Assembly (NCBI GenBank): GCA_030390025.1
Contig: CM059431.1
Coordinates: 104,534,001-104,598,000 of the forward strand
Length of the DNA stretch: 64,000 nt
DNA from: Squalus acanthias
Taxonomy: Eukaryota
Direction of reading: 5' to 3'
Below are positions 4,103 to 60,042 of this stretch, in pieces. A program made the position numbers and the translations under genes. Under the pieces are notes generated by a model. That model was not told the origin of the DNA, made no database searches, and worked only from the letters and a program-made list of their open reading frames with translations. Within the stretch, counting starts at the first letter, position 1. Every line of letters begins with the position of its first letter.

Positions 4103-4958
4103 GGGCTGGATTTTGAATCTGGGGTCGGGTTGGGGTCGGGAATCACACATTTTGGCTTGTGAACCCGCCTCCATTGAGATGTGGCCAACCCACTGTATTT
4201 TCCCTTGATTGACCTTGTTGAGCCCGCCCAGTGGGCTCAGCAGGCCAATTAATGGCCACCCAGCAACAGGTGACGTCGCAGACTGATATTTCATCTGTCA
4301 AGAGCTTTTGACAGATGAAATATCAACGTTTGACAGCTCTGTGAAGCTGTCAAACACTGACAATATGATTTCTAACTTCAGTCCTTCCTCTCAGACTGAG
4401 TTAGAAATCATTCCACCACAGAAAACAGAAGGCTGCAGTTTTTGACAGAACCACGGCTTTCCTGCTTTCTGTGCCGGTGAGATTTCTAACTCCCGAGAAC
4501 TGAAATGCTGACACCTGCAGGAGGAAGTTAAGGTAAGTAAAACTTTTTCCAACACTTAGCACTTACCTTACACACTTACCTCTGCACACATGCACCCATC
4601 ACTCACCTGCCCACCGGACATATCGACCCCTCCAACCCCTGCAGACCCACGGCCCGCCCTGATAACTTGGCGTGGTAGCCACCTGTCGGGAAGCCCACAC
4701 TTTTCTTTTTAAAATAGGGATTATGCAAAAAACTGCCTGTTAACTACCTGTTAACAGGCAGTTAATTGTCACTAATCCCTTCCCGCCTCGGGGAGTCGGG
4801 TCTCAGAACAGGTCGGGTACCCGCCGCCAGAGAAACTGGCATGGAGGCGGGTTGGAGGCGGGATGGGGTCGGGACCCCCGAATCTGCAACTTTAACACCC
4901 CCCCCCCCCCCCCCCCCGCCTCCAAACCTGACTCCACGGGTCATTGCAAATCCAGCCC
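4103..4958. mobile_element. About 850-bp non-autonomous Harbinger-like element
   Basis: TIRs GGGCTGGATTT/AAATCCAGCCC, flanks AAT/AAA. Inverted near-identical copy at 8786-9634. Confidence 0.85.
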
Positions 4959-5051
4959 AAATACTCTCTATGATCTCACAACTGCTCTTAACCTTTCTAA
5001 AGGTGTCGGGTAGAGAACAAAATTGCAGCCCACAGGGCTTGGGCCCTACAG

Positions 5052-5225
5052 GTGTCAGCCATGGCTCAGTGGGCAGCACCCTCGCCTCCGAGTCAGCAGG
5101 TTGTGGGTTCAAGTCCTACTCCAGAGAGACTTGAGCACAAAAATCCACGCTGACACTTCCAGTGCAGTACTGAGGGAGTGGCTGCGCTGTCAGAGGTGCT
5201 GCCTTTCTAGTGAGACATTAAACCA
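5052..5225 (+). mobile_element. DeuSINE 5' fragment
   Basis: tRNA-like head GGCTCAGTGG...GGTTCAAGTCC, truncated after the start of the body. Confidence 0.75.
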
Positions 5226-5554
5226 TTTTGAAGTTCTGCTTTAAAATAAACATTTTCAAAAAAGCATTACCTTAACAGTACGAGTGGGACTCCGACCATC
5301 TGACTAACGCCAAGACCCAGGTTTAACCAATCTATACCAGTCTATAAACAGTCTGGTCGGACTTTAGCCAGAGATGCGATGCCTGTCACTCCCCAGCAGA
5401 TTTTTTACTAAATAGTAATCAGATTTGAAACTTTTGATGAGCTGTAATGAAACTGAAGGTCATGTGCTGTCAAGAACAATCTGATGACAGTTAACTTCCC
5501 CCAAAAAGTGCAGTTTTCATACATCAGAAGCAAATCATGATGTATGAAAACTGA

Positions 5555-5846
5555 TATGGAAAGCTACCCAACGCCTGCCACAAAACCAACCAATTAACTC
5601 AGTCAAGAGGGGGAGGCGCGAGGGGGAAAAAAATTGCTGCAGAGGTTCGTAACTTTTGCTGACTTGTTTGCATGCTTGTTCTGTTTTAATTGTATACATT
5701 GGGGTTTGTGTTCATAGTTGGTCAAAATGCTTGGGGAAAAAAAATAGTGTGAATGGTCGGTTTCATGGTAGTTGCTAGTTTGTAAATGGTAGTCTTGACT
5801 GAGTTAATTGGTTGGTTTTGTGGCAGTTGTTGGGTAGCTTTCCATA
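5555..5846. repeat. About 54-bp inverted repeat pair, candidate TA-flanked MITE
   Basis: 5555-5608 is the near-perfect reverse complement of 5793-5846, with TA at both outer ends. Confidence 0.65.
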
Positions 5847-6156
5847 ACTCGCTTGTGAATGGAACTGATTAATGGGTTATTTTATCCGATCAGCATGGTC
5901 CCCATTTAGTTAATGAGACATTTGCGCCGATCAGCATGGTTAACCTAACAGATAGCGGTAATTTGAGCTAATCACAATATTGTTTTGTCCTGCTGACACT
6001 CTTAAAGTTTAATGCCCTTTGAATGTGACACACCAGACATGTGCTCGATGCAAGGGTTTTAATTATATAGTTAGATTCTTTTTTTTTACTCACAGGATGT
6101 GGGCAAGGCCAGCATTTATTGCCCTTGAGAAGTTGGTGGTGAGCCACCTTCTTGAA

Positions 6157-6488
6157 TACATAGAATTACATCAGATATAGGGCACAGAAACAGAGCATTC
6201 AGCCCAACCAGTCCATGCTGGTGTTTATGCTCCACTCGAGCCTCCTCCCGTCTTTCCTTATCTAACTCTATCAACATAACCCTCTATTCCCTTCTCCCTC
6301 ATATGCATGTGCCTAAAATGCATCCATACTATTCGCATCAACCACTCCCTGTGGTAGCGAGTTCCACATTCTCATCACTCTTTAGGTAAAGAAGTTTATT
6401 CTGAATTCCCTATTTGATTTCTTGGTGACTATCTTATATTGATGGCCTCTAGTTTTGCTCTTCCCCCACAAGTGGGGACACTCTCTGT
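6157..6488 (-). mobile_element. CR1 LINE 3' fragment, interrupted at 6489 and resuming at about 8236-8262
   Basis: Encodes ...TRGHQYKI...FFT and has a CATAGAAT-type tail. Confidence 0.75.
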
Positions 6489-8235
6489 GGGCTGGATTTT
6501 CCCTGCGGAGGCGGGATGGTGGCGGGAGAGCTGGTTGGCGGTTTCCGGTCCCGCTCCCGTCTGCAGCCGCTCTCTCCAAGAGATTTTCCGTAGATTGGCC
6601 TTGTTAAGCCCACCCTGCGGGGTTCCTGGCCAATTAACAGGAAGCAGGTCTGATGACGTCATTTGATGACGCGTCATCAGCCGGTTTCCTTAAAGGGACC
6701 ACGGCCACATTGATTTTGACAGTCGTGCTGTCAGTGTTCTACAGCATTGCAAACACTGACAAGCACTGCACAGAGGTGTACGGCTGCACCCAGGATCTCC
6801 CATGACTCCCTCCATATGCTTATGGAGGGAGTCATACCACGCAGGGAGATTCTCTTCTCTTCCCATGGGCGGAAGAGACCTCCCCAGGAGATCAACGCAG
6901 TCTGGTTGCACATTGCACAGGAGGACACAAGCAGGGATGCCATCAGGAGGACCAGGCTGCAGTGGCGCAAAACATTCAATGATCTCAGTAGATCACAAAA
7001 CGTTACTGCAAAACCACACTCAACCTCACCCTGCTGTGCCACTCATCACATCCCCATCACTCTGCCTTCCCTACCCTACTCCTGCACATCCTTACTCACA
7101 CCAACTCACCGTGGACCTCCACCCATCCCTCTCTATCTACATTATCACTTCCCCATCTCACTAGCCAGCTCTCACACTCACCCTCATCCTACTGCAATCA
7201 TACCAACTAACAACACACAAGGGTAGGCACTTGAGAAGTTTAGCCAATGTTCATGTGCAGTTTCTGGTAATGTGTTGTCATACAGTGAAATCTATATTTT
7301 CACCACTTCACCTTATTGGACAGATCTGTGCGTACATTGAGAAGTGTCTTACTGAGTTCCAGTGAATGTTGAGACATAACTTCCGCCCCCCGCTATAGTG
7401 ATGAGTGTGAATGGAATGGGTTGGACATTATAGGGATGCTTTACGGTACTGGTGTGGGATGGTGTTAACCTGGTGAATCATGTGGCAGCCAGGGTTTACA
7501 GCATCAAGTGAAGTAAATCTGGCCATGGTGATGCCATCGCTGGTCTCCTGGGCAGCAATGTTGTCAGGGGCTGATGCCCTGTGTCCTGTGCAGCATCAGG
7601 TGATGGCAGAGAAGGTTGGTGATGCTGGTGTGCCTGGTGAAGTTGGTATTGGGGCTGAGCGTGGAAGGATTCAGAGGACCAAGGTGTGATTTTTTCTAGG
7701 GCACCAATGTTGCTGGAATAGATGGCAGCTGCAGGTGAGATGACAGAAGCGATCTGTCAATGGTGAGAGAGGTTGTTCCATTGAGGTGGCACTGGACATA
7801 CAGTTGGATCTAAAAACTAGCTAAAGAAATGCAGTAACCAACAGTTTCTGCTCTCTGAAACTGACCATCTGCAACATGGCATCCTTTAATCCACTTCTGC
7901 AGCTGTCAGGTTATCAGATACATCAGAGCAGACTCAACTAATGCCAGGGTGAGCCGGCGTGTTCCCAGAGCAGCGGGTAACCCGTGGGGGAGCAGGTAAA
8001 ATTGCAATGTAGGCTCAAAGTAGCATTAAATTGGCTGTTCACAAGCCATTTAATGATATAAATTGTCTCCCCCGCCACTTGGTTTCGGGTCAGTTCTGCG
8101 CAGACAGACCCGACACCAGGGAGACTCGCGTGGAGGCAGGTTGACAGCGAGTTTCCTACCCGCTGTTAATCTTTGCTATTTTGACAGCGGACCTGCCTCC
8201 AAACCCAACCTCTGAGCGCTGGCAAAATCCAACCC
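6489..8235. mobile_element. About 1.75-kb non-autonomous Harbinger element with a Myb/SANT remnant
   Basis: TIRs GGGCTGGATTTT/AAAATCCAACCC. ORF 6747-7226 contains PRISHDSL...RREILF...W...QWRKTFNDL. Same family as 13898-15690. Confidence 0.85.
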
Positions 8236-8274
8236 TCGGTGTCTACTCCATCAAAACCTTTCATCCAACTGTGT

Positions 8275-8550
8275 GGCACAGGGCAGTTAAGAGTCAACCA
8301 CATTGCTGTGGGTCTGGAGTTACATTTAGACCAGGTAATGATGGCAGCATTTCCATCCCTAAAGGATACTAGTGAATACGACAATGGTCATCATTACTGA
8401 TACTAGCTTTTTATTCCAGATTTATTTAATTAACAGAATTTAAATTATCTAGCTGCCGTGGTGGGATTTGAACGCATTGTCACCAGATTATTAGTCCCGA
8501 TCTCTGCGATTACTAGTCTAGTAACGTAACGTAACCACTATGCTACCGCA
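8275..8550 (-). mobile_element. SINE sharing its 3' end with the 2615/61884 LINE family
   Basis: tRNA-like head on the minus strand. A related + copy lies at about 27345-27645 ending TAGGGATTGGCAATAAATG...CCCACATCCC. Confidence 0.55.
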
Positions 8551-8785
8551 AGTTCTGCAAGAACCCGGAATATATTGTAAAAGCATGATTCAAACCTTTA
8601 ACTAATTTTTTCCTAGTTAGCTTACCAGGATTGAAAAGCAGGAAAATACCTTAAACACAGTTATGCTCACATGTGTTTTCTCTATTACCTGTTCCTTGAA
8701 TATTTGGACTTGGTAAGTAAATCGATTTTGCCGAGATTGCATATTTTACGACAGTTGTGGCCCAAAGTGCGGTGTCAGACACAAT

Positions 8786-9634
8786 GGGCTGGATTTTCAA
8801 TGACCCGTGGAGCCGGGTTTGGAGTCGGGGGGGGTGGGGGGTTAAAGTTGCAGATTCGGGGGTCCCAACCCCATCCCGCCTCCAACCCGCCTCCATGCCA
8901 GTTTCTCTGGCAGCGGGTACCCGACCTGTGCTGAGACCCGACTCCCCGAGGCGGGAAGGGATTAGTGACAATTAACTGCCTGTTAACAGGTAGTTAACAG
9001 GCAGTTTTTTGCATAATCCCTATTTTAAAAGGTGAAATGTGGGCTTTCCGACAGGTGGCAACCATGCCAAGTTATCGGGGCGGGCCGTGGGTCTGCAGGG
9101 GCTGGAGGGGTCGATATGTCCGGTGGGCAGGTGAGTGATGGGTGCATATGTGCAGAGGTAAGTGTGTAAGGTAAGTGCTAAGTGTGGGAAAAAGTTTTAC
9201 TTACCTTAATTTCCTCCTGCAGGTGTCAGCCCTTCAGTTCTCGGGAGTCAGAAATCTCATCGGCACAGGAAGCAGAAAAGCCGTGGTCCTGTCAAAAACT
9301 GCAGCCTTCTGTTTTCTGTGGTGGAATGATTTCTAACTCAGCCTGAGAGGAAGGACTGAAGTTAGAAATCATATTGTCAGTGTTTGACAGCTTCACAGAG
9401 CTGTCAAACGCTGATATTTCATCAGTCAAAAGCTCTTGACAGATGAAATGTCAATCCGTGACGTCACCTGTTGCCGGGTGGCCCTTAATTGGCCTGCTGA
9501 GCCCACTGGGCAGGCTCAACAAGGTCAATCAAGGGAAAATACAATGGGTTGGCCACATCTCGATGGAGGCGGGTTTACAAGCCAAAATGTGGGATTCACG
9601 ACACCAACCCGACCCCAGTATCAAAATCCAGCCC
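8786..9634. mobile_element. About 850-bp non-autonomous Harbinger-like element
   Basis: Perfect TIRs GGGCTGGATTTT/AAAATCCAGCCC and exact AAT TSD. Confidence 0.9.
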
Positions 9635-13822: not shown

Positions 13823-16090
13823 GTGTCAGCCGTGGCTCAGCGAGGCACACTCTTGCCTTCTGGGCCAGTAGGTTCTGGATTCACAATCCCACTCCAGGGG
13901 CTGGATTTTCTCAGTGGTGTCGGGATGGCGACGGGATAGCTGGTTACTGGGTTCCGGCCCTGTTCCTGGCTGCAGCCGCTCTGTCAAAGAGATTTTCCCT
14001 TGATTGGCCTTGTTAAGCCCGCCCTGTGGGCTTCCCGGCCAATTAACAAGCGGCGGGTCTGATGACGTCATTTGATGACGCGTCATCAGCCGGTTTCCTT
14101 AAAGGGACCATGGCCACATTGAGTTTGACAGTTGTTCGATCGGTGTTTGACAGCATTGAGGTGCTGCAAACATTGACAAGCACTGCACAAAGGTGGACGC
14201 TTTCACCCAAGCTCTCCAATGACTCCCTCCGTATGCTTAGGGAGGGAGTCACAGCACGCAGGGAGGTTCTCCTCCCTTCCAAGGACAGAAGAGACCTCCT
14301 CCAGGAAACCAACGCAGCCTGGTTGCACATTGCACAGGAGGGCAAAAGCAGGGATGTCGTCAGGGGTCCCTGGCTGCAGTGGCGCCAACCTTTCAATGAT
14401 CTCAGTGGATCACGAAACGTTACTGCAAAGCCACACTCAAACTCACCCTGCTGTGCCACTCAACACATCCCCATCATTCTGCTTTCCCTACCCTTCTACT
14501 GCACATCCTTACTCACACCAACTTACCTTGCACCTCCACCCATCCCTTTCTATCTACATTATCACATCCCCATCTCACTAGCCACCCCTCACACTCACCC
14601 TCATCCCAGTGCAATCATACCAACTAACAACACACAAGGGTAGGCACTTGAGAGGTTTAGCCAATGTCCATGTGCAGTTTCTGGTAATGTGTTGTCATAC
14701 AGTGAAATCTATATTTTCAACATAGCCCATTATTGGACAGATCTGTGCACACCTTGTCTTACTGAGTTCCAGTGAATGGTGAGACATAAATTCCGCCCCC
14801 CCCCCCCCCCCCCCCGCTATAGTGATGAGTGTGCATGGAATGGCTTGGACATTAAAGGGATGCTTCACGGTGCTGGTGTGGGATGGTGTCAACCTGGCGC
14901 ATCATGTGACAGCCAGGGTGTACCGCGTCAAGTGAAGTAAATCTGGCCATGGTGATGCCATCGCTGGCCTCCCGGGTAGCAATGTTGTCAGGGGCTGATG
15001 CCCTGTGTCCTGTGCAGAATCAGATGATGGCAGAGAAGGTTGGTGTTGTTCTTGGTGCTGCTGGTGTGCCTGGTGATGTTAGTGTTGGGGCTGAGCGTGG
15101 AAGGATTCAGAGGACCAAGGTGTGATTTTTCGAAGGGCACCGATGTTGCTGCAATAGATGGCAGCTGCAGGTGAGATGACAGAAGCGATCTGTCAATGGT
15201 GAGAGAGGTTGATCCAATGAGGTGGCACTGGACATACAGTTGGATCTAAAAACTAGCTAAAGAAATCTCTATTATGTCTTACAAATGCAGTAACCAACAG
15301 TTTCTGAGCTCTGAAACTGACCATCTGCAACATGGCATCCTTTTTACCACTTCTGCAGCTGTCAGCTTATCAGATATATAAGAGCAGACTCAACTCACGC
15401 CAGGGTGAGCTGGCGTGTTCCCTGAGCAGCCGGTAACCCATGGGGGAGCAGGTAAAATTGGAAGGAAGCCTCAAAATATCATTAAATTGGCTGTTAACAA
15501 GCCATTTAATGAGCTCAATCGTCTCCCCCGCCGCTTGGTGTCGGGTCAGTTCTCCGCTGACAGACCCGACACCTGGGAGACTCGCGTGGAGCTGGTTGAC
15601 AACGGGTTTCCTACCCGCTGTCAATCTTTGCTATTTTGACAGCGGACCTGCCTCCAAACCCAACCTCTGAGTGCCGGCAAAATCCAGCCCTAGACACTTG
15701 AGGACGTAATCCAGGCTGACAATCCCAGTGCAGTACCGAGGGAGCGCTGCACTGTCGGAGGTGCCGTCTTTTGGAATTAGACATTAAACCGTGGCCCCAT
15801 CTGCCCTCTCAGGTGGATGTAAAAGATCCCATGGCACTATTTTGAAGAAGAGCAGGGGAGTTATCCCCAGTGTCCTGGCCAATATTTATCCCTCAACCAA
15901 CATAACAAAAAACAGATTAATCGGTCATTATCTCATTGCTGTTTGTGGGAGCTTGCTGTGCACAAATTGGCTGCTGCATTTCCTACATTACAATGGTGCC
16001 CAAACTTCAAAAGTACTTCATTGGTTGTAAAGCACTTTGCCACGCCTTTGAGGTTGTGAAAGGCACTACACAAATTCAGGTCTGTCTTTC
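13823..16090 (+). mobile_element. DeuSINE split by the Harbinger insertion (13823-13897 plus 15691-16090)
   Basis: SINE sequence ...CCCACTCCAG resumes as AGACACTTGAG after the insertion. Confidence 0.8.
13898..15690. mobile_element. About 1.8-kb non-autonomous Harbinger element with a Myb/SANT remnant
   Basis: TIRs GGGCTGGATTTT/AAAATCCAGCCC, TSD CAG/TAG. ORF 14062-14643 contains PKLSNDSLRML.EGVTARREVL...AAWLHIAQE...QWRQPFNDL. Confidence 0.88.
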
Positions 16091-16492: not shown

Positions 16493-16744
16493 GGATTTGT
16501 TTTCATTAGAGGAAAGGAGGTTGAGGGGTGATTTGATAGAGGTGTACAAGATTATGACGGGTTTGGATAGGCTAGACAGGGAAAGGCTGTTCCCACTAGT
16601 TGATGGTACAAGGACTAGGGGACACAGATTTAAGGTTTTGGACAAGAGATACAGGGGGGGATGTGAGGAAAAAGTTTTTTACACAGCGAGTGGTGAGGAC
16701 CTGGAATTCGCTGCCAATGGAAGTGGTGGAAGCGGAGACACTCA
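16493..16744 (+). mobile_element. CR1 LINE 3' fragment
   Basis: Reads LFSLEERRLRGDLIEVYKI...TRGHRFKV...FFTQRVVRTWNSLP. Confidence 0.85.
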
Positions 16745-17052
16745 GGGCTGGATTTTTTCTTGGGGTCGGGTTGGGGTCGTGTAATCCGCATTTCGTGTTC
16801 CCCCCCCGACTCCAGATTAATGTGGATGCCTGATACAATTTTCACTTAATTGGGCAACTGAGTTGCAGCATGTGGGAACCCATGAACTAATTAGTGGTTT
16901 CAGTCTGAAACCCGCCTCTGATGATGTCATCATTGCTGACTGCCTGCTCTCAGAGATTGCCTGGCTACTGGTGAGAGACGACCTGTCTGCATTGCTTCTG
17001 ATGTGAGTAGACCTGGATGCAAATGAGAGAGACAGAGAATGAGAGAGAGAAT

Positions 17053-17083
<31 letters not shown>

Positions 17084-17706
17084 GCATCCAAGTCCTCTTA
17101 CACCAAATATCAGTAACGACTTTCACACCTAATACTACTACTACCTTCATCACATCTCCATTGTAATAGTGGACTTGCAGCCGATAGTCAGCTATCCATT
17201 TGTGCTCCCGCCAGGTTTCACTGGAGTGTTTCACACCAGGCGTGCTTCACGTCAAAAAAAGGTTAAACTAGCTACAACGTTTCAAAATAGCATTACAGAC
17301 CCAATTTAGGGCTTGTTAAGGGCTTTAATGGCCTCTCCCGCCTCTTGGAGGCGGGAGAGAGTCAGGAACCCCGCAACTGATTTTGTCAAAATTGCGTGGA
17401 GGTGGGATGGAGTCGGGATGGCGTCGGAAACCCCGACCCTGCAAATTTAACCCCCCACACGCCTCCAAACCCGACTCCATGGGTCATTCAAAATCTCTGA
17501 GAGCAGGCAGTCAGCAATGATGACATCATCAGAGGCGGGTTTCAAACTGAAACCACTAATTAGTTCATGGGTTCCCACATGCAGCAACTCAATTGCCCAA
17601 TTAAGTGAAAATTGCATCAGGCATCCACATTAATCTGGAGTCGGGGGGGGGAACACGAAATGCGGTTTACACGACCCCAACCCGACCCCAAGACAAAATC
17701 CAGCCC
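16745..17706. mobile_element. Fused pair of Harbinger-like MITEs forming about 214-bp inverted arms
   Basis: 16745-16958 is the reverse complement of 17492-17706. The body matches the 49655-50383 family. Confidence 0.8.
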
Positions 17707-18096
17707 TATGACTCTTGCAGAGCAAGAGATTGGCCCACCCACACAGTAGAGGGATTTATCTTTTCTTTCATTCCGCCTCACTGGTCTATAAGGATAGTTT
17801 CTTTTCTTCGAAGTCTCTGAAGGAGTAGAAACTAAAGTATCCACTTTTTCCAACAAAACAATACAAAGTTCGGAGTCGATGAAAAGAGGGGGGAAAGATC
17901 CCTCACTACCATGTGATGCAAACCTGCTGGAGAAAACCTGGCTGAGCTTTTTGCCTTCTATAACTTTTTTTGCTGGAAGTGCAATCAATTATTTTAGTGC
18001 AGTGGCTCAGAGATGGCAAAGAATAGAATTTACAAGCAGGCTGGGATCCCTCTGTGCATCAGGCAACCCACACAGCCAAAGCGTGTTTAGATGCCT

Positions 18097-18360
18097 GAGT
18101 GATACCCACCCTGCTGTATGCCTCAGAGACATAGACCATGTACAGCAGGCACCTCAAAGCACTGGAGAGGTACCACCAACGCTGCCTCCGCAAGATCCTG
18201 CAAATCCATTGGCAGGATAGGCGCACCAACGTCAGTGTTCTCGCGCAGGCCAACATCCCCAGCATCGAAGCTTTGAACACGCTCGATCAGCTCCGATGGA
18301 TGGGCCACATCGTCCGCATGTCTGATATGAGACTCCCAAAACAAGCGCTCTACTCGGACC
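18097..18360 (+). mobile_element. RTE-clade LINE fragment, 5' part of a split copy
   Basis: Reads YSRHLKALERYHQRCLRKILQIHWQDRRTN...QLRWMGHIVRM.D.RLPKQALYS. Confidence 0.8.
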
Positions 18361-18908
18361 TTTCCCCCCTCTTTTCATCGACTCCGAACTTTGTATCGTT
18401 TTGTTGGAAAAAGTGGATGCTTTAGTTTCTACTCCTTCGGAGACTTCGAAGAAAATAAACTATCCTTATAGACCAGTGAGGGGGAATGAAAGAAAAGATA
18501 AATCCCTCTACTGTGTGGGTGGGCCAATCTCTTGCTCTACAAGAATCATAGGGGGAAAAATTAGGTCGCGCACCGTTTGGGGCGCAAATATCGTCTGGAC
18601 GCAAAAATTAGCGCCTGGCGCTAATTATCGCCACTGACTGGAAACTTCACTTTTACCGCCCCGGGAGGTGAGTGGAGCGCTAAATCATGCGCTGCACACC
18701 TGTCTTAAGGCGCAAAGGCCGAGCAGTGAGGCGCTAACTCAGCGCGCGAGCGCAGCGCAGGTGCTGCCAGTTAGCGAGGGAACACAGACACACTGGCGCC
18801 AGCCAGTTCTTAAAGCGGGGGGGCCAACTTGCTCCCCAGCCACACCCTGCTCATTGCAGCCTTGAATCTCGGCCTGGAGAGACCTGTGAATCCATTTTGC
18901 TGCCAAGG

Positions 18909-20728
18909 ATGGAGAGGGTGAGAGAACGAGCTCAGCGCTTCATCGAGCGGGCCTTGGATGCTCTGGTTGGCGCGGTGGAGCGCAGAAGATCTATACTCTT
19001 CCCTGAGAGTGGCAGGAGGCCTTTGCCACGCGAGTACAGAAGAATGTGGAGGGAGGTGGCTCAGAGCGTCTCCTCCAGGAGCATGGTGCCCAGGACCCAT
19101 GTTCAATGCCGCAAAAAGTTCAACGACCTCACTCGGGTCGTCAGGGTGAGTGGCTTTTTCTCAATACCTCTCCATCCCTCCATCTCAACCTCACTCTAAG
19201 GCCAGAGGGTCTTAAAACCCCAATGCACAACACTCATCCAACACCTATGGCCCTTTCATGAAACACACACACACATTCCACACTTTGCATACAGTAAGGG
19301 CTATTCACCTATGGGAGGCACATCAGGCAAGACCATGGCTGCATACAGTAAGGGCTATTCACCTATGGGAGGCACATCAGGCAAGACCATGGCTGTATAT
19401 TTACTCAGATGCTGTCCTTTTTCTTGCAGGCCAAGCTGGCGCATAATAGGAGACAGCAACAACGGACAGGTGGAGGGCGGCTTCAGCTGCAACCCCTCAG
19501 CGATCTTGAGGAGCGCGTCCACAGGATTGTGGCAAGCCGGGTGATCGGTCCCGTCGCCACTGGAGATGCTGACCCCGTTCTGGACAGCAATGGTAAGGTC
19601 ATCACCTTTTTGTCCTCTGTCCTTCCACTTGTCCCTCACAACACCAGCCTTTGACACTTTCAATCCAACTTGCTAACTCGCTGCACTTATTCCTCCCTTA
19701 CTGCCACCCTGTCCTCACGCTAAAGCCACTCTTGTACCTCCCTGCTTTCAGATGGTGATTCACCAGCTGAGGAGACGGGCCCTGAAGCTGCCAGTGGGAG
19801 TGAAGCTGCAGCCGAGGAGGAAGAGGGAGCCGGAGCATCAGTGCCACCCTCTCCCGAGGAAGCCCATGCCCACACTGGGAATACGCCTTCCCTGGAGGGG
19901 AGCAGGGGGGAAGGGTCTGATGAGGGTGAAGCTCCAGGACCCAGCGGGCTGCAGCAACGCCATGGGGGTAGGGAAGAACGGGGGCCTTCTCCCCAGAGGG
20001 AGAATATGCCAGCGACTCCTACTGCAATGGACGCAGAGGAGGAGCGGCTGATCGCAGAAATGAACACCCAGGCGGTGGGCATGCACACTGAGCTCATGGG
20101 TGCAGTGGGAAGGGTGCCCGAATGCATTGAGTCACTGGCAAGGAGTGTGGAGCACTTCGATGTAACACAGGCGGATGCCACACTAAAGCTTAGTGCTGCA
20201 ATTCAGTCACTGACTGCCGTGATCCCATCTCTGACTGCTCTCATGCAGACTCAGATTGAGGCCACGCGAGCACTGACTGCTGCCAACCTCGATGGTTCGT
20301 TCACATGTCCCCGGGGCTCTCACCGCGCCGCAGCAGGCCAGCAATCTGTGCTCCAGCAGATTGCTCCGGATGCTGAAGTGCTGCCCCGTGGGAGTGCCAG
20401 TGTGTCGGTCGAGCAGGGAGTTGCTGTCCTCTCTCACGATGACAGCATTCCTGCTGCCAACACTGTCACTTCTCCACTGCACTTGCCACCGCCTGTAGGA
20501 CAGACTGCTGCCGCCCATGCAGAGTTGGTGCAGTCTGCAGCCGGGCCCTCCAGGCCCAGAACTGGTCGAGGCCGTCCTTCAGGGGCAGCTGCAGTGTCAG
20601 GGTCTGACAATCAGCAGCCTTCCACCAGCCTTGCTGCAGCCACTGAGGTCCCATTATGGAGGAGCAGTAGGGTTAGAAGGGGGGAAGTGCGCAAGGGAAG
20701 GAGATCACCCTCGAAGGGAAAAAAGTAG
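18909..20728 (+). CDS. Harbinger Myb/SANT-like DNA-binding protein; join(18909-19145,19430-19592,19752-20728), 458 aa
   Basis: Exon 1 has RAQRF...L.ALV.AVERRRSILF...MWREVAQSV...RTHVQCRKKFNDL. Exon 2 starts AKLAHNRRQQQRTGGG. Canonical sites GTGAGT/TTGCAG and GTAAGG/TTTCAG keep one open frame (237+163+977 nt). AATAAA near 20906. Confidence 0.88.
19286..19395 (+). repeat. Perfect 54-bp tandem duplication in Myb intron 1
   Basis: TGCATACAGTAAGGGCTATTCACCTATGGGAGGCACATCAGGCAAGACCATGGC occurs twice. Confidence 0.9.
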
Positions 20729-21040
20729 GAGGTGTGACAAAATGCTGGTCATTTTTTTATTAAAGGCCGAGGTTCGTGGTCCAACTTTTGTTTAGTGTTT
20801 TGGACATTATCTCCAGGTTGTGAGAACCAGTTATGTTAATGACTGTTTTTTTGTGTTTATTTCTATGAGTTTGTCATGAGGAAATGACACACACAGAGTT
20901 TGTAAAATAAATAAGTTTTTGTATTCAAAATATACATGTTTGGTGTTTGGAATCATTGGTGCCTTGGCCGGCTTAGGGGTTGCGTGCTGGGTTCATTGAT
21001 GTTGTTAGCAATGGCAGAAGCCATTTCCACAGCAGGGGCC

Positions 21041-22201
21041 CTAGAAGCAGCTTGCTATCAGCCGTTGACGGACGGCCCTTGCAGTTTCACCATTGTGGGC
21101 CGCCCTCCCGCCTTGGTGCTGCTGATGATCATCCTCCTCGTCCTCTTCCTCCTCTTCCTCCTCCTCCTCTGGTGGTGCTCCAAGGCCTGGTGGCATTGGC
21201 TGGGTCCTGAGGATTGCCATGTTATGCAACATGCAGCACACAACTACGAAGTTGGATACTCGCTCAGGCGAGTACTGCAGGGCTCCTCCAGAATGGTCGA
21301 GACAGCGGAACCGTTGCTTCAGCACGCCGATTGTGCGCTCAATGATGTTCCTGGTAGCTTGATGGCTCTCGTTGTACCGCAGCTCAGCAGGGGTGTTGGG
21401 CGTACGGAGCGGTGTCATCAGCCAGGTGCTCAATGGATACCCCTTGTCCCCGAGAAGCCAACCAACTGGCTGATGCGGTGCCTCGAAAAGTTCTGCCACA
21501 GTAGTCTGGCGCAGGATGAAAGCATCGTGGCAGCTGCCAGGATAGTGGGCATTGACAGCGAGTATCAGCTGTCTGTGGTCACAGACCAACTGAACATTCA
21601 AGGAATGGAACCCCTTTCTGTTCCGGAAATCCTCGGCATTGTCATGTGGAGCACGCAAAGCCACATGCGTGCAGTCAATGGCGCCCTGCACCATGGGGAA
21701 GCCCGCTATCCTCACAAAGCCCAGAGCGCGGTCACGCTGCTTTTCTAGGGTCATGGGGAAAGAGATGAACTCTCGTCTCCTTTTAAATAGGGCATTTGTG
21801 GCCTGCCGGATGCAGCAATGCACCGCGAACTGGGAGATATTGGCGAGGTCCCCAGCAGCAGCTTGAAATGAGCCAGTAGCATAGAAGTTGAGAGCCACTG
21901 TGACCTTCACTGCCACCGACAGAGACGTCCTGGACTTCAGTTGAGGCTGCAGATCTGGCTGCAGCAGGTGGCAGAGCTCAGTGACCACCTCCTTGCTGAA
22001 TCGCAGCCTTCGCAAACACAGCTCCTCAGACATATGAATGTAGGAGAGCTGTTCACGATATACCCTGGGAGGGTAAGCTCTCCTGTACAGACGCCTGTTG
22101 GCCCTCCTCCGTCTGGCCATCATTGCCACTCTCTCTCTGCGTCTCTGTGTCCTCCGATTCAGCTGGAGCAGGACGACGCCCCAATTCAGTGCAGCCCCCA
22201 T
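21041..22201 (-). CDS. Harbinger DDE transposase (HARBI1-like family), 386 aa from the first ATG
   Basis: Uninterrupted ORF with LRFSKE, ALNFYATGS, GAIDCTHV (D), FRNRKG.HSLNVQLVCD, PGSCHDA, LLGDKGY (D), RNIIERTIGVLKQRFRCL (E), CCMLHN. Confidence 0.95.
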   Translation of the reverse strand: MGAALNWGVVLLQLNRRTQRRRERVAMMARRRRANRRLYRRAYPPRVYREQLSYIHMSEELCLRRLRFSKEVVTELCHLLQPDLQPQLKSRTSLSVAVKVTVALNFYATGSFQAAAGDLANISQFAVHCCIRQATNALFKRRREFISFPMTLEKQRDRALGFVRIAGFPMVQGAIDCTHVALRAPHDNAEDFRNRKGFHSLNVQLVCDHRQLILAVNAHYPGSCHDAFILRQTTVAELFEAPHQPVGWLLGDKGYPLSTWLMTPLRTPNTPAELRYNESHQATRNIIERTIGVLKQRFRCLDHSGGALQYSPERVSNFVVVCCMLHNMAILRTQPMPPGLGAPPEEEEEEEEEDEEDDHQQHQGGRAAHNGETARAVRQRLIASCF

Positions 22202-22389
22202 AGTCTCTTTGCAAGCAAAGTTATGAAGGACAGCAACCAAAGTACCAGCGAAGTTAGGATCAGTAGGCAACACTACCTCACAAAGCGTTGACTTAATGCA
22301 GAAGTCTCTCTTTCTCTCTCTCCGAATCTCTCTCTCTCTCTCAGAACGAGTGGTGCAAAAATGTCAACCACAGAAAAAGACAGGAAGAG

Positions 22390-22545
22390 GCCCCCTTTAA
22401 ATAGCGCCCCCCCCAGCCCCACAGCGATTGATAGCGTTCCAGTCTTCCGGTCGTTGGATGCGCCAGGCGGTAAGGCAGGGGGCGCCACTCAATTTCCGCT
22501 CCGGGGCGCCACAAGGGCGTTGCACCATGGAATGACGTCACAATC
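22390..22545 (-). promoter_or_regulatory. Putative transposase promoter
   Basis: Minus-strand TATTTAAA near 22395-22402 and a TGACGTCA palindrome at 22533-22540. Both are retained in the derivatives at 22724 and 59211. Confidence 0.45.
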
Positions 22546-22723
22546 TGCGCGCGCAGGTGGTCGCGGCGGTAAAGTTTAGCGCCGCCGCACAATGTCTAGT
22601 AAAGTTCCCGAGCGGCGCAAACATCGCTGCGCCCGGGCGCTAGCAGCTTTGCGCCCCATTAGCGCCCTCTTAAGGCGCTAACGGGAGGCGCAACCAACTG
22701 AATTTTTCCCCCATAGAGTCATA

Positions 22724-23618
22724 GGGGGAGAAATTCAGTATCACCCCATTTGGGGCGCAATTATCGGCCGGGCGCAAAGATTAGCGCCTGGCGCTAATTA
22801 TCGCCACCGACTGCAAACTTGACTTTTATCGCCCCTGGAGGTGATTGCAGCGCTAAATCAGGCGCTTCACACCTGTCTTAAGGCGCAAAGGCCGAGGAGC
22901 GAGGCGCTACCTCAGAGCGCTGGCGAAGCTCATGTAATGTCAGTCAGCAATGGAACACACACACAATGGCACGGGTCAGTTCTTAAAGGGGATGGTTGAT
23001 CTTGCTTTCCATCCACATCCTGCTCATTGCAGCCTTGAATCTCGGCCTGGAGAGACCTGCACATCAAATCTGCTAGAAAGAACAATGGAGAGTACCAGGC
23101 AAAGAGCTCAGAGTGCAGCCCCCACAATCTCTTCTAAATCGATGCAAGGAATGGCAAATCAAAATGAACCTGCAAAGTGCTGCTCAGCACCCAAAACTCC
23201 TTCTCACAACGTTGAATCTCTCCAGAAGTCTCTCTCTCTCTCTCTCTCAGAATGCGTAGCTCAAAAATGGCACCAACAATAAAAGGCAGGAGGCGGTCAC
23301 CTTTAAATAGCGCTCCCCCTTTCCCTTCATGACTGCAGAACGCTCCCCTCAACCTGTCGTTGCTAGCATCAGGCGGTAAGGCAGGGGGCGCCACTCAATA
23401 TCCGCTCCGGGGCGATACCGGGTTGTTGCGCACTCGACTGACGTCACGATCTGCCGGCGCAGGAGATCGTGGCGGTAGTGTTTAGCGCTGCCGCAAAATG
23501 TCTAGTTAATTTCGCAAGCGGCGCAAACTTCGCCGCGTCTGGGCGCTAGATGCTTTGCGTCCCATTAGCGCCCTCTTAAGGCGCTAACGGGAGGCGCAAC
23601 CAACTGAATTTTTCCCCC
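22724..23618. mobile_element. Non-autonomous internal-deletion relative of the autonomous Harbinger (895 bp)
   Basis: TIRs GGGGGAGAAATTCAGT/ACTGAATTTTTCCCCC, TSD ATA. Both ends align with the ends of 18551-22712. Confidence 0.92.
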
Positions 23619-23930
23619 ATAGAATCATAACGGCACAGAAAGAGGCCATTCGGCCCATCGAGTCCGTGCTGGCTCTCTGTAGAGCAATCCAGTCAGTTCC
23701 ATTCCCCCGCTCTATCCCCGTAGCCCTGCAAGTTTATTTCCCTCAAGTGCCTATCCAGTCTCCCCTTGCAAACATTGAGTGTCTCCGCTTCCACCACTTC
23801 CGTCAGCAGCGAATTCCAGGTCCTCAGCACTCGCTGCGTAAAAAAGTTTTTCCTCACATCCCCCCTGTATCTCTTGCCCAAAACCTTAAATCTGTGTCCC
23901 CTAGTCCTTGTACCATCAACTAGTGGGAAC
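23619..23930 (-). mobile_element. CR1 LINE 3' end whose tail hosts the two Harbinger elements
   Basis: Reads LFPLVDGTRTRGHRFKVLGKRYRGDVRKNFFTQRV, followed by 3' UTR and an (ATAGAATC)-type tail. Confidence 0.88.
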
Positions 23931-24262
23931 AAGGACACCCTCAAAGCCTCCTTGAAAAAGTGCAACATCCCCACTGACACCTGGGAATCCCTGGCCCAAG
24001 ACCGCAGAAAGTGGAGGAGAAGCATCCAGGAAGGCGCCGAACACCTCGAGTCTCTTCACCGGGAGCAAGCGGAAGCCTAGCGCGAACAGCGCAAGGAGCG
24101 CACGTCAACCCAAGCACCCCACCCACCCACCCCTTCAACCACCGTCTGCCCCACCTGTGACAGAGACTGTAGGTCCCGCTTGGACTCATCAGTCACCTGA
24201 GAACTCATTTTTAATGTGGAAGCAAGTCATCCTCAGTTCCGAGGGACTGCCTAAGAAGAAGG
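23931..24262 (+). mobile_element. RTE-clade LINE 3' end, continuation of 18097-18360
   Basis: Reads KDTLKASLKKCNIPTDTWESLAQDRRKWRRSIQEG, then a C2H2-like remnant and a TAAGAAGAAG tail. Confidence 0.8.
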
Positions 24263-58665: not shown

Positions 58666-59210
58666 GTCAGAAAATAAAGCAATGAGTATATTGTTGCAGC
58701 AATATATAGAAACTACCTACATTTGCAATGAACTACTGCAGCAATATATATAAAATATCTTAATCTGTATATAATAAAAAACAAATTTTTGAATTGTTCT
58801 TTTGAAACTGCTATTTTGTTTCAAAAATAATCTAAAATACAAGTTTAGAACATTTGCTTCGGTTCAACAACCTAAAATGTTGTTGCATTTCCAGTTCTAA
58901 TTATGTGCTGCTTTCTTTTTCCCATAACTTACATCCTTGTAATTTATTTCTTCTGATGTGATGAGTAGGAAACTATCTTTCCGTAATTTTTCATTTCCAA
59001 CATCGTGGGTTAGATTTTTTAATTTTAGATTATGTGTCACGAAATGGGTCTAACTGATGGAAGAAGAAAGAATGGAGATCCATAATGCTGGAGCTTGGCC
59101 CATTTAGCACATTACCCATATTTCTATTTCTGGTTTTGACAGCTCAAGAAGCTCTTACCTGCAACTTAATGTTAATGTGCTGATGGTGTCATTTAAAAAG
59201 AAAGATTTTG

Positions 59211-60042
59211 GGGGAAATATTGGGTAACGTTACTTTTTGGGGCGCTAATATCGTCCGGGAGCAAAGTTTAGCGCCCAGCGCTAATTATAGCCTCCAACTG
59301 CAAAATTCGCCTCTATCGCCCCCCTGGAGGTGATTGGAGCGCTAAATCAGGCGCTACACACCTCTCTTAAGGCACTAGCGTCGTGGAGCAAGGCGCTACC
59401 TCAGAGCGCTACCGAAGCTCAGGCGATGACAGTTACCATGGAAGCCAGACAGACTGGCGTCGTCCAGTTCTTAAAGAGGAGGGGCCATATTGCAGCCTTG
59501 AATCTCGGCCTGGAGAGAATTCTAAAGCAATTGTGTTGGAACCACTAATGGATAGGCCCAGGGAAAGAGCTCGGCACGTAAGAACCTCTAAAGTGGTGCT
59601 GAGGACCAAAACTCCTTAGGACAGCGTTAAATCTCCCCAGACGTCTCTCTTCCTCCCAACCTGCGTGTACCAAAAATTTTGCCGACAAGAAAAGGCAGGA
59701 AGTGGCCGCCTTTAAATAGCGCTCCCCCAGCACCTTCCCAACTTGAAAACGTTCCCCTCTACCTGTCGTTCCTAACGACAGGCGCTAAGGCAGGGGGCGC
59801 GACTCAATATCCAGTCCGGGGCGCTACCGGGGCATTGCATGCTCGACTGACGTCAGGATCTGCGGGCGCAGGAGATCGTGGTGGTACTGTTTTGCGCCGC
59901 CGCAAAACGACAGGTCAAATTCGCGAGCGGCGCTAAAATTGCTGCGCTCAGGCGCTAAGTTTCTAGCGCCCCATTAGCGCCTCCACCCTCCCCCCCCCCA
60001 AGGCACTAATGGGAGGCGCTAACCAAACTAATTTTCCCCCCC
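59211..60042. mobile_element. Non-autonomous relative of the autonomous Harbinger, inserted in a SINE tail
   Basis: Ends GGGG(G)AAATATT/AATTTTCCCCC, TSD TTG. Aligns along its length with 22724-23618. SINE continues at 60043-60390. Confidence 0.82.

Follow-up and report, generated by a model that had tools for sequence, protein, structure and literature searches.

This locus raises the question of whether a transposon that looks whole is also young and still able to move. The element, E1, lies in a window of 64,000 nucleotides from Squalus acanthias and is a structurally complete two-gene Harbinger (Table 1). The earlier note read it as possibly young or still competent, and set it against a window in which almost everything else is decayed. 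Combining its anatomy with copy, transcript and homologue data, we suggest instead that E1, a complete autonomous-type PHIS Harbinger, likely stems from an old burst of a many-copy shark family, has likely been decaying neutrally since its insertion and has frames that are probably open by chance.

Table 1. Features of E1 and of neighbouring elements (positions in the window)
Feature	Position	Strand	Remarks
E1, full-length two-gene Harbinger-type DNA transposon	18551..22712		4162 bp
ATA target-site duplications (TSD)	left 18548..18550, right 22713..22715
Terminal inverted repeats (TIRs)	left 18551..18562, right 22701..22712	left +, right -	12 bp each
Left subterminal region	18563..18800		rich in GCGC words
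TATA-like box, 5' of Myb gene	18807..18815	+	counterpart in E2 and E3
Myb/SANT gene, exon 1	18909..19145	+	PF13873
Intron 1	19146..19429	+	GT-AG; splicing backed by homologue alignment only
Myb gene, exon 2	19430..19592	+
Intron 2	19593..19751	+	GT-AG; 159 nt; spliced form in run X9
Myb gene, exon 3, coding part up to stop codon	19752..20728	+
3' region common to both convergent genes	20729..21040
Transposase ORF	21041..22201	-	386 aa; D176, D252, E288
TATA-like box, 5' of transposase gene	22395..22403	-	counterpart in E2 and E3
Right subterminal region	22460..22700		GCGC-rich
E2, non-autonomous sister family member	22724..23618		895 bp; own ATA duplication
3' end of CR1-type LINE	23619..23931	-	E1 and E2 landed in its 8-bp tail repeat
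E3, more distant non-autonomous relative	59210..60040		imperfect TIRs, no clean TSD

Most of the anatomy claimed in the earlier note held up. The ATA target-site duplication is exact, and the transposase ORF is unbroken, carries the D-D-E triad and matches PF13359 (DDE_Tnp_4, E 9.8e-41) and PF04827 (E 9.5e-11); the TIRs described as perfect are so over 12 bp only, and the two ends diverge further in. The transposase start at 22201 is supported because the 387-aa homologue P0002 (61% identity) spans 100% of the query. The closest protein, P0001, is 71% identical over 79% of the transposase length, and the exact E1 protein was not found in the protein collection searched. The closest relatives are models from Pristiophorus japonicus and other elasmobranchs labelled, by automatic annotation only, 'putative nuclease HARBI1', and these models often lack the triad: E1 has all three residues, but only 30 of 67 aligned homologues retain them.

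The Myb/SANT gene was likewise confirmed as three exons with GT-AG introns that join into a single 458-aa frame (with exon 3 taken as 19752-20731, the stop codon ending at 20728). Its product matches PF13873 (E 4.6e-9) and 13 homologues, and exon 3 encodes an acidic linker, a helical middle and a basic C-terminal tail. The proposed splice model as a whole stands on two kinds of data. The joint 19592/19752 (GT..AG) is spliced exactly as predicted in two contigs of X9, a probable RNA assembly, and in neither DNA run. The joint 19145/19430, which is absent from the 15 joints listed out of 155, is backed by homologue alignment: in 12 of 14 homologues the protein alignment runs across it without a gap, and of the remaining pair, one carries an insertion exactly there and one ends just after it. 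The same 15 joints include none that skips E1, to which we give no weight because contigs are unable to demonstrate absence. An alternative intron-1 acceptor at 19409, giving a 465-aa product, was rejected for its poorer fit to the homologues than 19430. The drop in X9 depth to 349 over the intron-1 bin, from 2153 and 1290 in the adjoining bins, was discounted as a sign of splicing because two bins at the 3' end of the transposase gene are also low (488 and 623) and because one X9 contig crosses the intron-1 donor unspliced at a depth of 298. Intron 1 also contains a perfect 54-bp tandem duplication (19286-19395). X9 coverage extends over both genes, and the E1 family appears to be transcribed and spliced; the raw RNA run X21 (organism I), which yielded no more than 115 partial reads over a CT microsatellite, is uninformative either way.

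GCGC words reach 52 per kb over 18551-18800 and 55 per kb over 22460-22712, against 3.2 per kb within the E1 interior and within the window, and by analogy the left region likely contains putative binding sites for the Myb protein. The two TATA-like boxes are putative promoters. AATAAA is present on the plus strand at 20906 and on the minus strand at 20856 and 20756, and the 3' UTRs of the two genes would therefore overlap. Taking the reconstructed zebrafish element as a model, we suggest a mechanism in which (i) two inward-facing end promoters would drive transposase expression as well as that of the spliced Myb gene, (ii) the Myb protein would bind the GCGC-rich ends and bring the transposase there, and (iii) the D-D-E transposase would excise the element and reinsert it with a 3-bp duplication.

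The target would likely be chosen by flanks of the form A-N-N-Y-[3 bp]-R-N-N-T rather than by the triplet; of 23 Harbinger-like ends, 16 carry this motif, where the background is 0.134. At both E1 and E2, two insertions from two families only, C precedes and G follows the ATA duplication. The E2 insertion lies one 8-bp unit away from E1 in the tail repeat of a LINE that we take to be CR1 from its RT C-terminus and tail, and site choice set by the flanks would account for two insertions 8 bp apart in this repeat. The elements at 22724 and 59211, previously regarded as derivatives of E1, belong rather to sister families (76-81% identity to the E1 ends for E2 and 72-73% for E3), and the start of the latter is corrected to 59210. 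The last 66 nt of E1 and E2 are identical at 65 positions; local gene conversion is not needed here, as a difference of 1/66 is in keeping with two families that share this end.

In the broad sense E1 falls within PHIS, with a Harbinger/IS5-type DDE transposase, a Myb/SANT second ORF, TIRs starting with G/A and a 3-bp TSD. Narrow-sense PIF/Harbinger elements duplicate TWA (Han et al. 2015), unlike the ATA of E1 and E2. NuwaI elements, as described in the accessible part of PMC4482050, duplicate CWG and have TIRs of 12-61 bp starting with GGG, two ORFs and a length of about 4.5 kb; E1 agrees with them in TIRs, ORFs and size but duplicates ATA. NuwaII elements, in the same text, target C|TNA|G, and E1 and E2 share the flanking C and G but not the TNA triplet. 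With both groups E1 has in common DDE and Myb/SANT ORFs, TIRs from 12-13 bp starting with GG(G) and a length of about 4.5 kb, a likeness of structure. Zebrafish Harbinger3_DR was rebuilt from a consensus (Sinzelle et al. 2008) and transposes into AAACACCWGGTCTTT (as cited in the accessible parts of PMC2836001 and PMC3016246), and both proteins are required for transposition in Harbinger3_DR and in Ping/Pong (PMC2836001, same part). Likened by description, Harbinger3_DR and E1 both have a DDE transposase with a Myb-like protein, a 3-bp duplication within a longer preferred site and non-autonomous partners; E1 differs in being a natural copy, in its ATA duplication and in its looser flank motif.

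The evidence on age comes from the other copies. The E1 family has many of them: in run X1, contig depths summed over E1 come to 3.3e5-1.8e6, against 30.7 for a flank contig, although such depth is not a copy number. The share of E1 31-mers found in small assemblies (0.53-0.62) corresponds to a divergence of 1.5-2.0% from the family majority, as estimated from word shares and not from aligned copies; the share is 0.83 in X1. Word share is the sole basis for organisms C-G, and the shares in runs X19 and X20 (0.07 and 0.05) and X22 and X23 (0.00) do not enter our conclusions. Private changes were counted in the 40 of 297 variant rows listed, 18 of which fall inside E1. At 15 of these 18 the E1 letter stands against the majority letter of X1, X9 and X7, and it makes up less than 3% of X1 depth at 13 of the 15, the two exceptions being CpG sites. 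The majority letters of all 15 sites recur in organism B, a second organism label, which indicates an old shared burst; organism B also has the neighbouring MITE, RTE, CR1 and E2 families.

Eight of the 12 listed private coding changes are non-synonymous, with a neutral expectation of 0.68-0.75; the probability of eight or more is 0.009-0.036 at dN/dS 0.2 and 0.05-0.14 at dN/dS 0.3. This 8:4 count is small because only 40 of 297 variant rows are listed, and the private coding changes would fit neutral decay. Decay is further suggested by transposase residue A134, at whose position V is present in 57 of 65 homologues and A in none; S95, suspected of being damaging in an 18-row alignment, was cleared by S in 18 of 67 sequences of the wider set. 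In simulations of neutral decay, the share of copies with both frames still open is 0.3-7.6% at 1.6% divergence and 0.1-4.9% at 2%, and some intact copies are therefore expected. The arms of the neighbouring MITE are identical at 207/215 positions and the duplicated flanks at 187/195 and 149/157, which would place them in about the same age class as E1. Thus, the contrast drawn with decayed surroundings was overstated, and with its divergence, its neutral-like changes and the absence of its own letters from X9, a reading of E1 as young or as standing out is not supported. Counting against decay, E1 keeps its two frames, four splice sites, two TIRs and catalytic triad undamaged, a state that neutral decay would leave in a few percent of copies only. 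The apparent transcription of the family over both genes counts against it as well, so some copies may work.

Such copies are at the centre of the best-surviving rival, in which E1 is old yet biochemically competent or a few transcribed source copies still mobilise ends of the E1 and E2 types at low frequency. We regard this as unlikely. It gains from the intact triad and frames, from the spliced family transcript covering both genes, from the near-identical right end of E2 and from the transposase itself, which shows a single invariant-type departure over the 94 columns that are at least 80% conserved. Against it, transcription does not equal transposition, X9 has the family letter and never the E1-specific letter at the 15 sites, E1 carries at least eight amino-acid changes relative to the family majority, and the agreement of two organism labels in their majority letters suggests an old burst. 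It is doubtful that this is a working shark Harbinger family, spliced and expressed, with sites chosen by the flanks and a free central triplet; if true, its target rule would lie outside the TSD-defined PHIS groups, and E1 would offer a template, ready to use, for a two-protein transposon native to vertebrates and kept by the slow shark clock.

Alternatively, E1 could belong to a small, recently active subfamily, its differences being lineage changes and not decay. Open frames would be likelier in that case, X1 contains 0.83 of the words, and the E1 letter reaches 1.6% (19044) and 2.5% (21747) of X1 depth; X1 is covered to about 55%, and a small young subfamily with E1's letters could escape. 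We nevertheless consider this very improbable: the E1 letter has no X1 depth at six of the 15 sites and 0.6% or less at five more, the non-synonymous share suits neutrality better than selection, and the flanking duplicates and the MITE are similar in age. A domesticated HARBI1/NAIF1-like gene pair retained by the host is a scarcely credible reading of the locus, despite the HARBI1 labels of the top matches and the domesticated Myb-like genes of sharks (uniform orthologue-like matches P0121-P0133), as E1 has TIRs, a TSD and many copies where such genes are single-copy, lack TIRs and TSDs and are under purifying selection, landed within a LINE tail, shows no sign of such selection, is only 65-71% identical to its best homologue and lacks a set of one-to-one orthologues in the tree. 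Horizontal transfer, reported for Harbinger-Snek of sea kraits in the accessible part of PMC8437027, was rejected for E1 on its nesting among shark and ray proteins (quick tree, 30 rows), with which vertical descent fits, and on the repeat landscape common to organism B.

We therefore favor the neutral decay of an old burst, in which the age, neutrality and present inactivity of E1 are inferred. Intact natural vertebrate Harbingers have already been published from sea kraits and bony fish, and the rarity of intact copies implied in the earlier note does not hold: the accessible parts of PMC8437027 and PMC4482050 give 269 intact two-gene Harbinger-Snek copies in one species and 1 in the other, and 11 NuwaI and 22 NuwaII families with both ORFs intact. 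Harbinger-Snek and E1 are alike as natural vertebrate elements with intact copies, RNA over both genes and slowed expansion (PMC8437027, same part). The Nuwa host lists in the accessible part of PMC4482050 contain no cartilaginous fish, one survey found no Harbinger in the elephant shark (PMC9179366), in a shark genome paper Tourist and Harbinger are mentioned only as the most frequent DNA transposons (PMC12498223), and no description of E1's shark family was found in the literature searched, Repbase and Dfam lying outside that search. The Harbingers of elasmobranchs have thus been barely described, and E1 lays out in full how the autonomous element that stands behind abundant shark MITEs is built, while its two near-consensus proteins could serve to test how Harbingers recognise their target. 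As a sign of present activity it is weak. E1 also illustrates that in slowly mutating genomes intactness is a poor indicator of youth.

E1, a two-gene Harbinger element, is bounded by perfect 12-bp inverted repeats flanked by ATA on either side and carries two convergent genes, with poly(A) signals located between the two stop codons and, for each gene, a TATA-like box towards its own element end. The transposase gene is an unbroken ORF of 386 aa that matches the DDE_Tnp_4 profile (E 9.8e-41) and contains D176, D252 and E288; the full D/D/E triad is kept in 30 of 67 aligned homologues (those 300-450 aa long among 120 matches listed). The Myb/SANT gene has three exons and two GT-AG introns and encodes 458 aa. 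In total, the complete structure described in the earlier note (TIRs, ATA target site duplication, D-D-E ORF and spliced Myb/SANT gene) was re-found. GCGC words reach 52-55 per kb in the terminal 250 bp of the ends vs 3.2 in the interior. Intron 1 contains a perfect 54-bp tandem duplication. In a short segment with poly(A) signals on both strands, the 3' ends of the convergent transcripts would overlap, a possible source of double-stranded RNA.

Coordinates of the features discussed (positions in the window)
Feature	Position	Strand
E1	18551-22712	
Myb/SANT exons	18909-19145, 19430-19592, 19752-20728	+
Intron 1; intron 2	19146-19429; 19593-19751	+
Tandem duplication, intron 1	19286-19395	
Poly(A) signals, both strands	20756-20911	
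Depth dip, transposase 3' end	20645-21382	
Transposase ORF start	22201	-
E2	22724-23618	
E1 and E2 jointly	18551-23618	
Inverted duplicate arms	16588-17901, 18356-23931	
Harbinger-type MITE	16745-17706	
E3	59210-60040	
Second-family relics	6489-7226, 13898-14643	
Paired 809-bp arms	4103-9634	

The searched stretch is present in 20 of 23 listed runs (labels A to G), with at least half of its words in 18. Summed contig depth across E1 in the DNA run X1 is 3.3e5-1.8e6 vs 30.7 for one flank contig, a measure that differs from copy number and is read only as "many copies". That the small assemblies contain 0.53-0.62 of the 31-mers implies a divergence of 1.5-2.0% from the family majority, assuming evenly spread changes. 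Among 40 listed of 297 variant rows, 18 lie inside E1; three were dropped as subfamily polymorphisms, and at all 15 kept sites the E1 letter is the minority in X1, in a second DNA run, X7, and in X9, a run from organism A taken as RNA by software guess (below 3% of X1 depth at 13 sites, the remaining two being CpG sites). At 7e-10 changes per base and generation, the epaulette-shark rate (PMC10587355), 1.5-2% would correspond to 1-3e7 generations, and this rate may not transfer to this host. The E1 copy is not recent. Organism B has the identical majority letter at 15/15 sites and also the neighbouring repeat families, in keeping with a possible family burst before organisms A and B (coded labels) separated. 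The samples under label G disagree, one with 0.54 of the words and two with 0.00, a sign that material may have been mixed or mislabelled. In each of the three assemblies depth dips across the 3' end of the transposase, and 100 X1 records depart from the sequence at 20645, a hint of an abundant form with an internal deletion.

Of the two RNA junctions proposed for checking, 19592/19752 was seen in two X9 contigs (depth 164.5) that skip intron 2 exactly, GT..AG, and this joint has zero depth in X1 and X7. Junction 19145/19430 is backed by homologue alignment only: the spliced Myb protein aligns ungapped across it in 12 of 14 homologues, and one homologous isoform has an insertion precisely at this point. 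The joint is not among the 15 listed of 155, and one X9 contig reads through the donor. X9 coverage extends over both genes; at 15/15 sites of private E1 letters it has the family letter alone, and the transcripts therefore derive from other copies.

Twelve of the 15 private sites are coding, eight of them non-synonymous (M46, G159, N218, T272 and W436 in the Myb protein; K89, L152 and E153 in the transposase) and four synonymous, with a non-synonymous share of 0.68-0.75 expected under neutrality. The probability of at least eight is 0.009-0.036 at dN/dS 0.2 and 0.05-0.14 at dN/dS 0.3. A further transposase departure is A134, a position at which 57 of 65 homologues have V. The earlier proposal that E1 may be young is not supported, given its distance from the majority, the private letters missing from X9 and this neutral pattern. 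At 1.6% divergence, 0.3-7.6% of copies kept both frames, the starts and the splice sites in a simulation of neutral decay with assumed indel-to-substitution ratios of 0.03-0.12; at 2%, the share was 0.1-4.9%. Since the family has many copies and a few percent stay intact, some intact copies are expected, and our main inference is that the E1 frames are probably open through neutral chance, the scan having singled out intact copies. These low percentages also leave room for less likely readings, namely that E1 or its family is still competent, that, much less probably, a small subfamily was recently active, or that the two genes are a domesticated host pair, a reading that the data largely refute. 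Current activity of the E1 copy is unlikely.

The non-autonomous relatives E2 and E3 are 76-81% and 72-73% identical to the E1 ends, respectively, which assigns them to sister subfamilies instead of making them E1 derivatives, as had been supposed. Both join the Myb-start region to the transposase gene at its 5' side and are therefore deletion forms of these subfamilies. Cross-mobilisation of E2 by the E1 family is plausible because E2 has a separate ATA duplication and its right end matches E1 at 65/66 positions. E3 has imperfect ends and lacks a clean duplication. One 8-bp unit separates E1 from E2 within the tail repeat of a LINE that we take to be CR1-type. With a TIR at its left and right ends and ATA beyond each, the pair could, in principle, move as a single composite unit.

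The region around E1 and E2 is an inverted duplicate (187/195 and 149/157, 95-96%) inside a presumably RTE-type LINE, and the other arm hosts a different Harbinger-type MITE (arms 207/215) at the homologous triplet. Insertion of E1 after the duplication is most parsimonious; E1 would therefore be younger than this 4.5% pairwise event, in agreement with 1.5-2%. By the same MITE arms and flanks the neighbouring repeats are about as old as E1, and the earlier impression that almost everything else is decayed exaggerates the contrast. Two second-family Harbinger relics have ends starting GGGCTGG and Myb-like remnants (PF13873, E 8.9e-5, in the first). Elsewhere, two 809-bp arms that are 95% complementary and have an AAT duplication surround 3.9 kb including a Myb remnant, and represent either two MITEs in inverted orientation or a Harbinger-type element with long TIRs.

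Target choice was scored with the flank motif A-N-N-Y-[TSD]-R-N-N-T. A at -7 with a pyrimidine at -4 occurs in 16 of 23 Harbinger-like ends of the window (background 0.134). The nominal significance (P 1e-9) is too strong, since the ends were found by a pattern set in this analysis, 4 of 27 matches were excluded (two within a G run, one duplicate register and one inner palindrome end) and the ends of a single insertion are non-independent. E1 and E2 fit the motif at all four of their ends. About 157 bp of CR1 tail are missing from the MITE-bearing copy beside the MITE left end, and the junction created by this loss matches the motif, as expected of a transposase-made adjacent deletion.

The top transposase matches are shark and ray models named "putative nuclease HARBI1", with identities of up to 71% (120 listed of 405), and the exact protein is absent from the collection searched. 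In a 30-row tree made by a quick method, with the careful search not completed, the transposase falls within a supported 8-row elasmobranch group with sawshark and ray proteins; for this reason the host is likely an elasmobranch, and vertical inheritance of the family is likely.

The reconstructed zebrafish element requires both proteins, the Myb-like protein binding the ends and importing the transposase (PMC2836001), and its target site is given in PMC3016246. Families with two intact ORFs number 88 in PIF/Harbinger, 11 in NuwaI and 22 in NuwaII (Han et al., PMC4482050); 269 intact copies are reported from one sea krait, and the second krait species has RNA across both genes (PMC8437027); teleost gonads express Harbingers, with none detected in elephant shark (PMC9179366); and the grey reef shark paper mentions Harbingers in a single sentence (PMC12498223). 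No description of an autonomous shark Harbinger family was found in the mostly open-access literature searched. E1 fits the broad Harbinger definition and matches no triplet-defined group exactly; judged from anatomy alone, it looks closest to the Nuwa groups. E1 is a real and complete element of an established transposon type, previously undescribed as far as searched.
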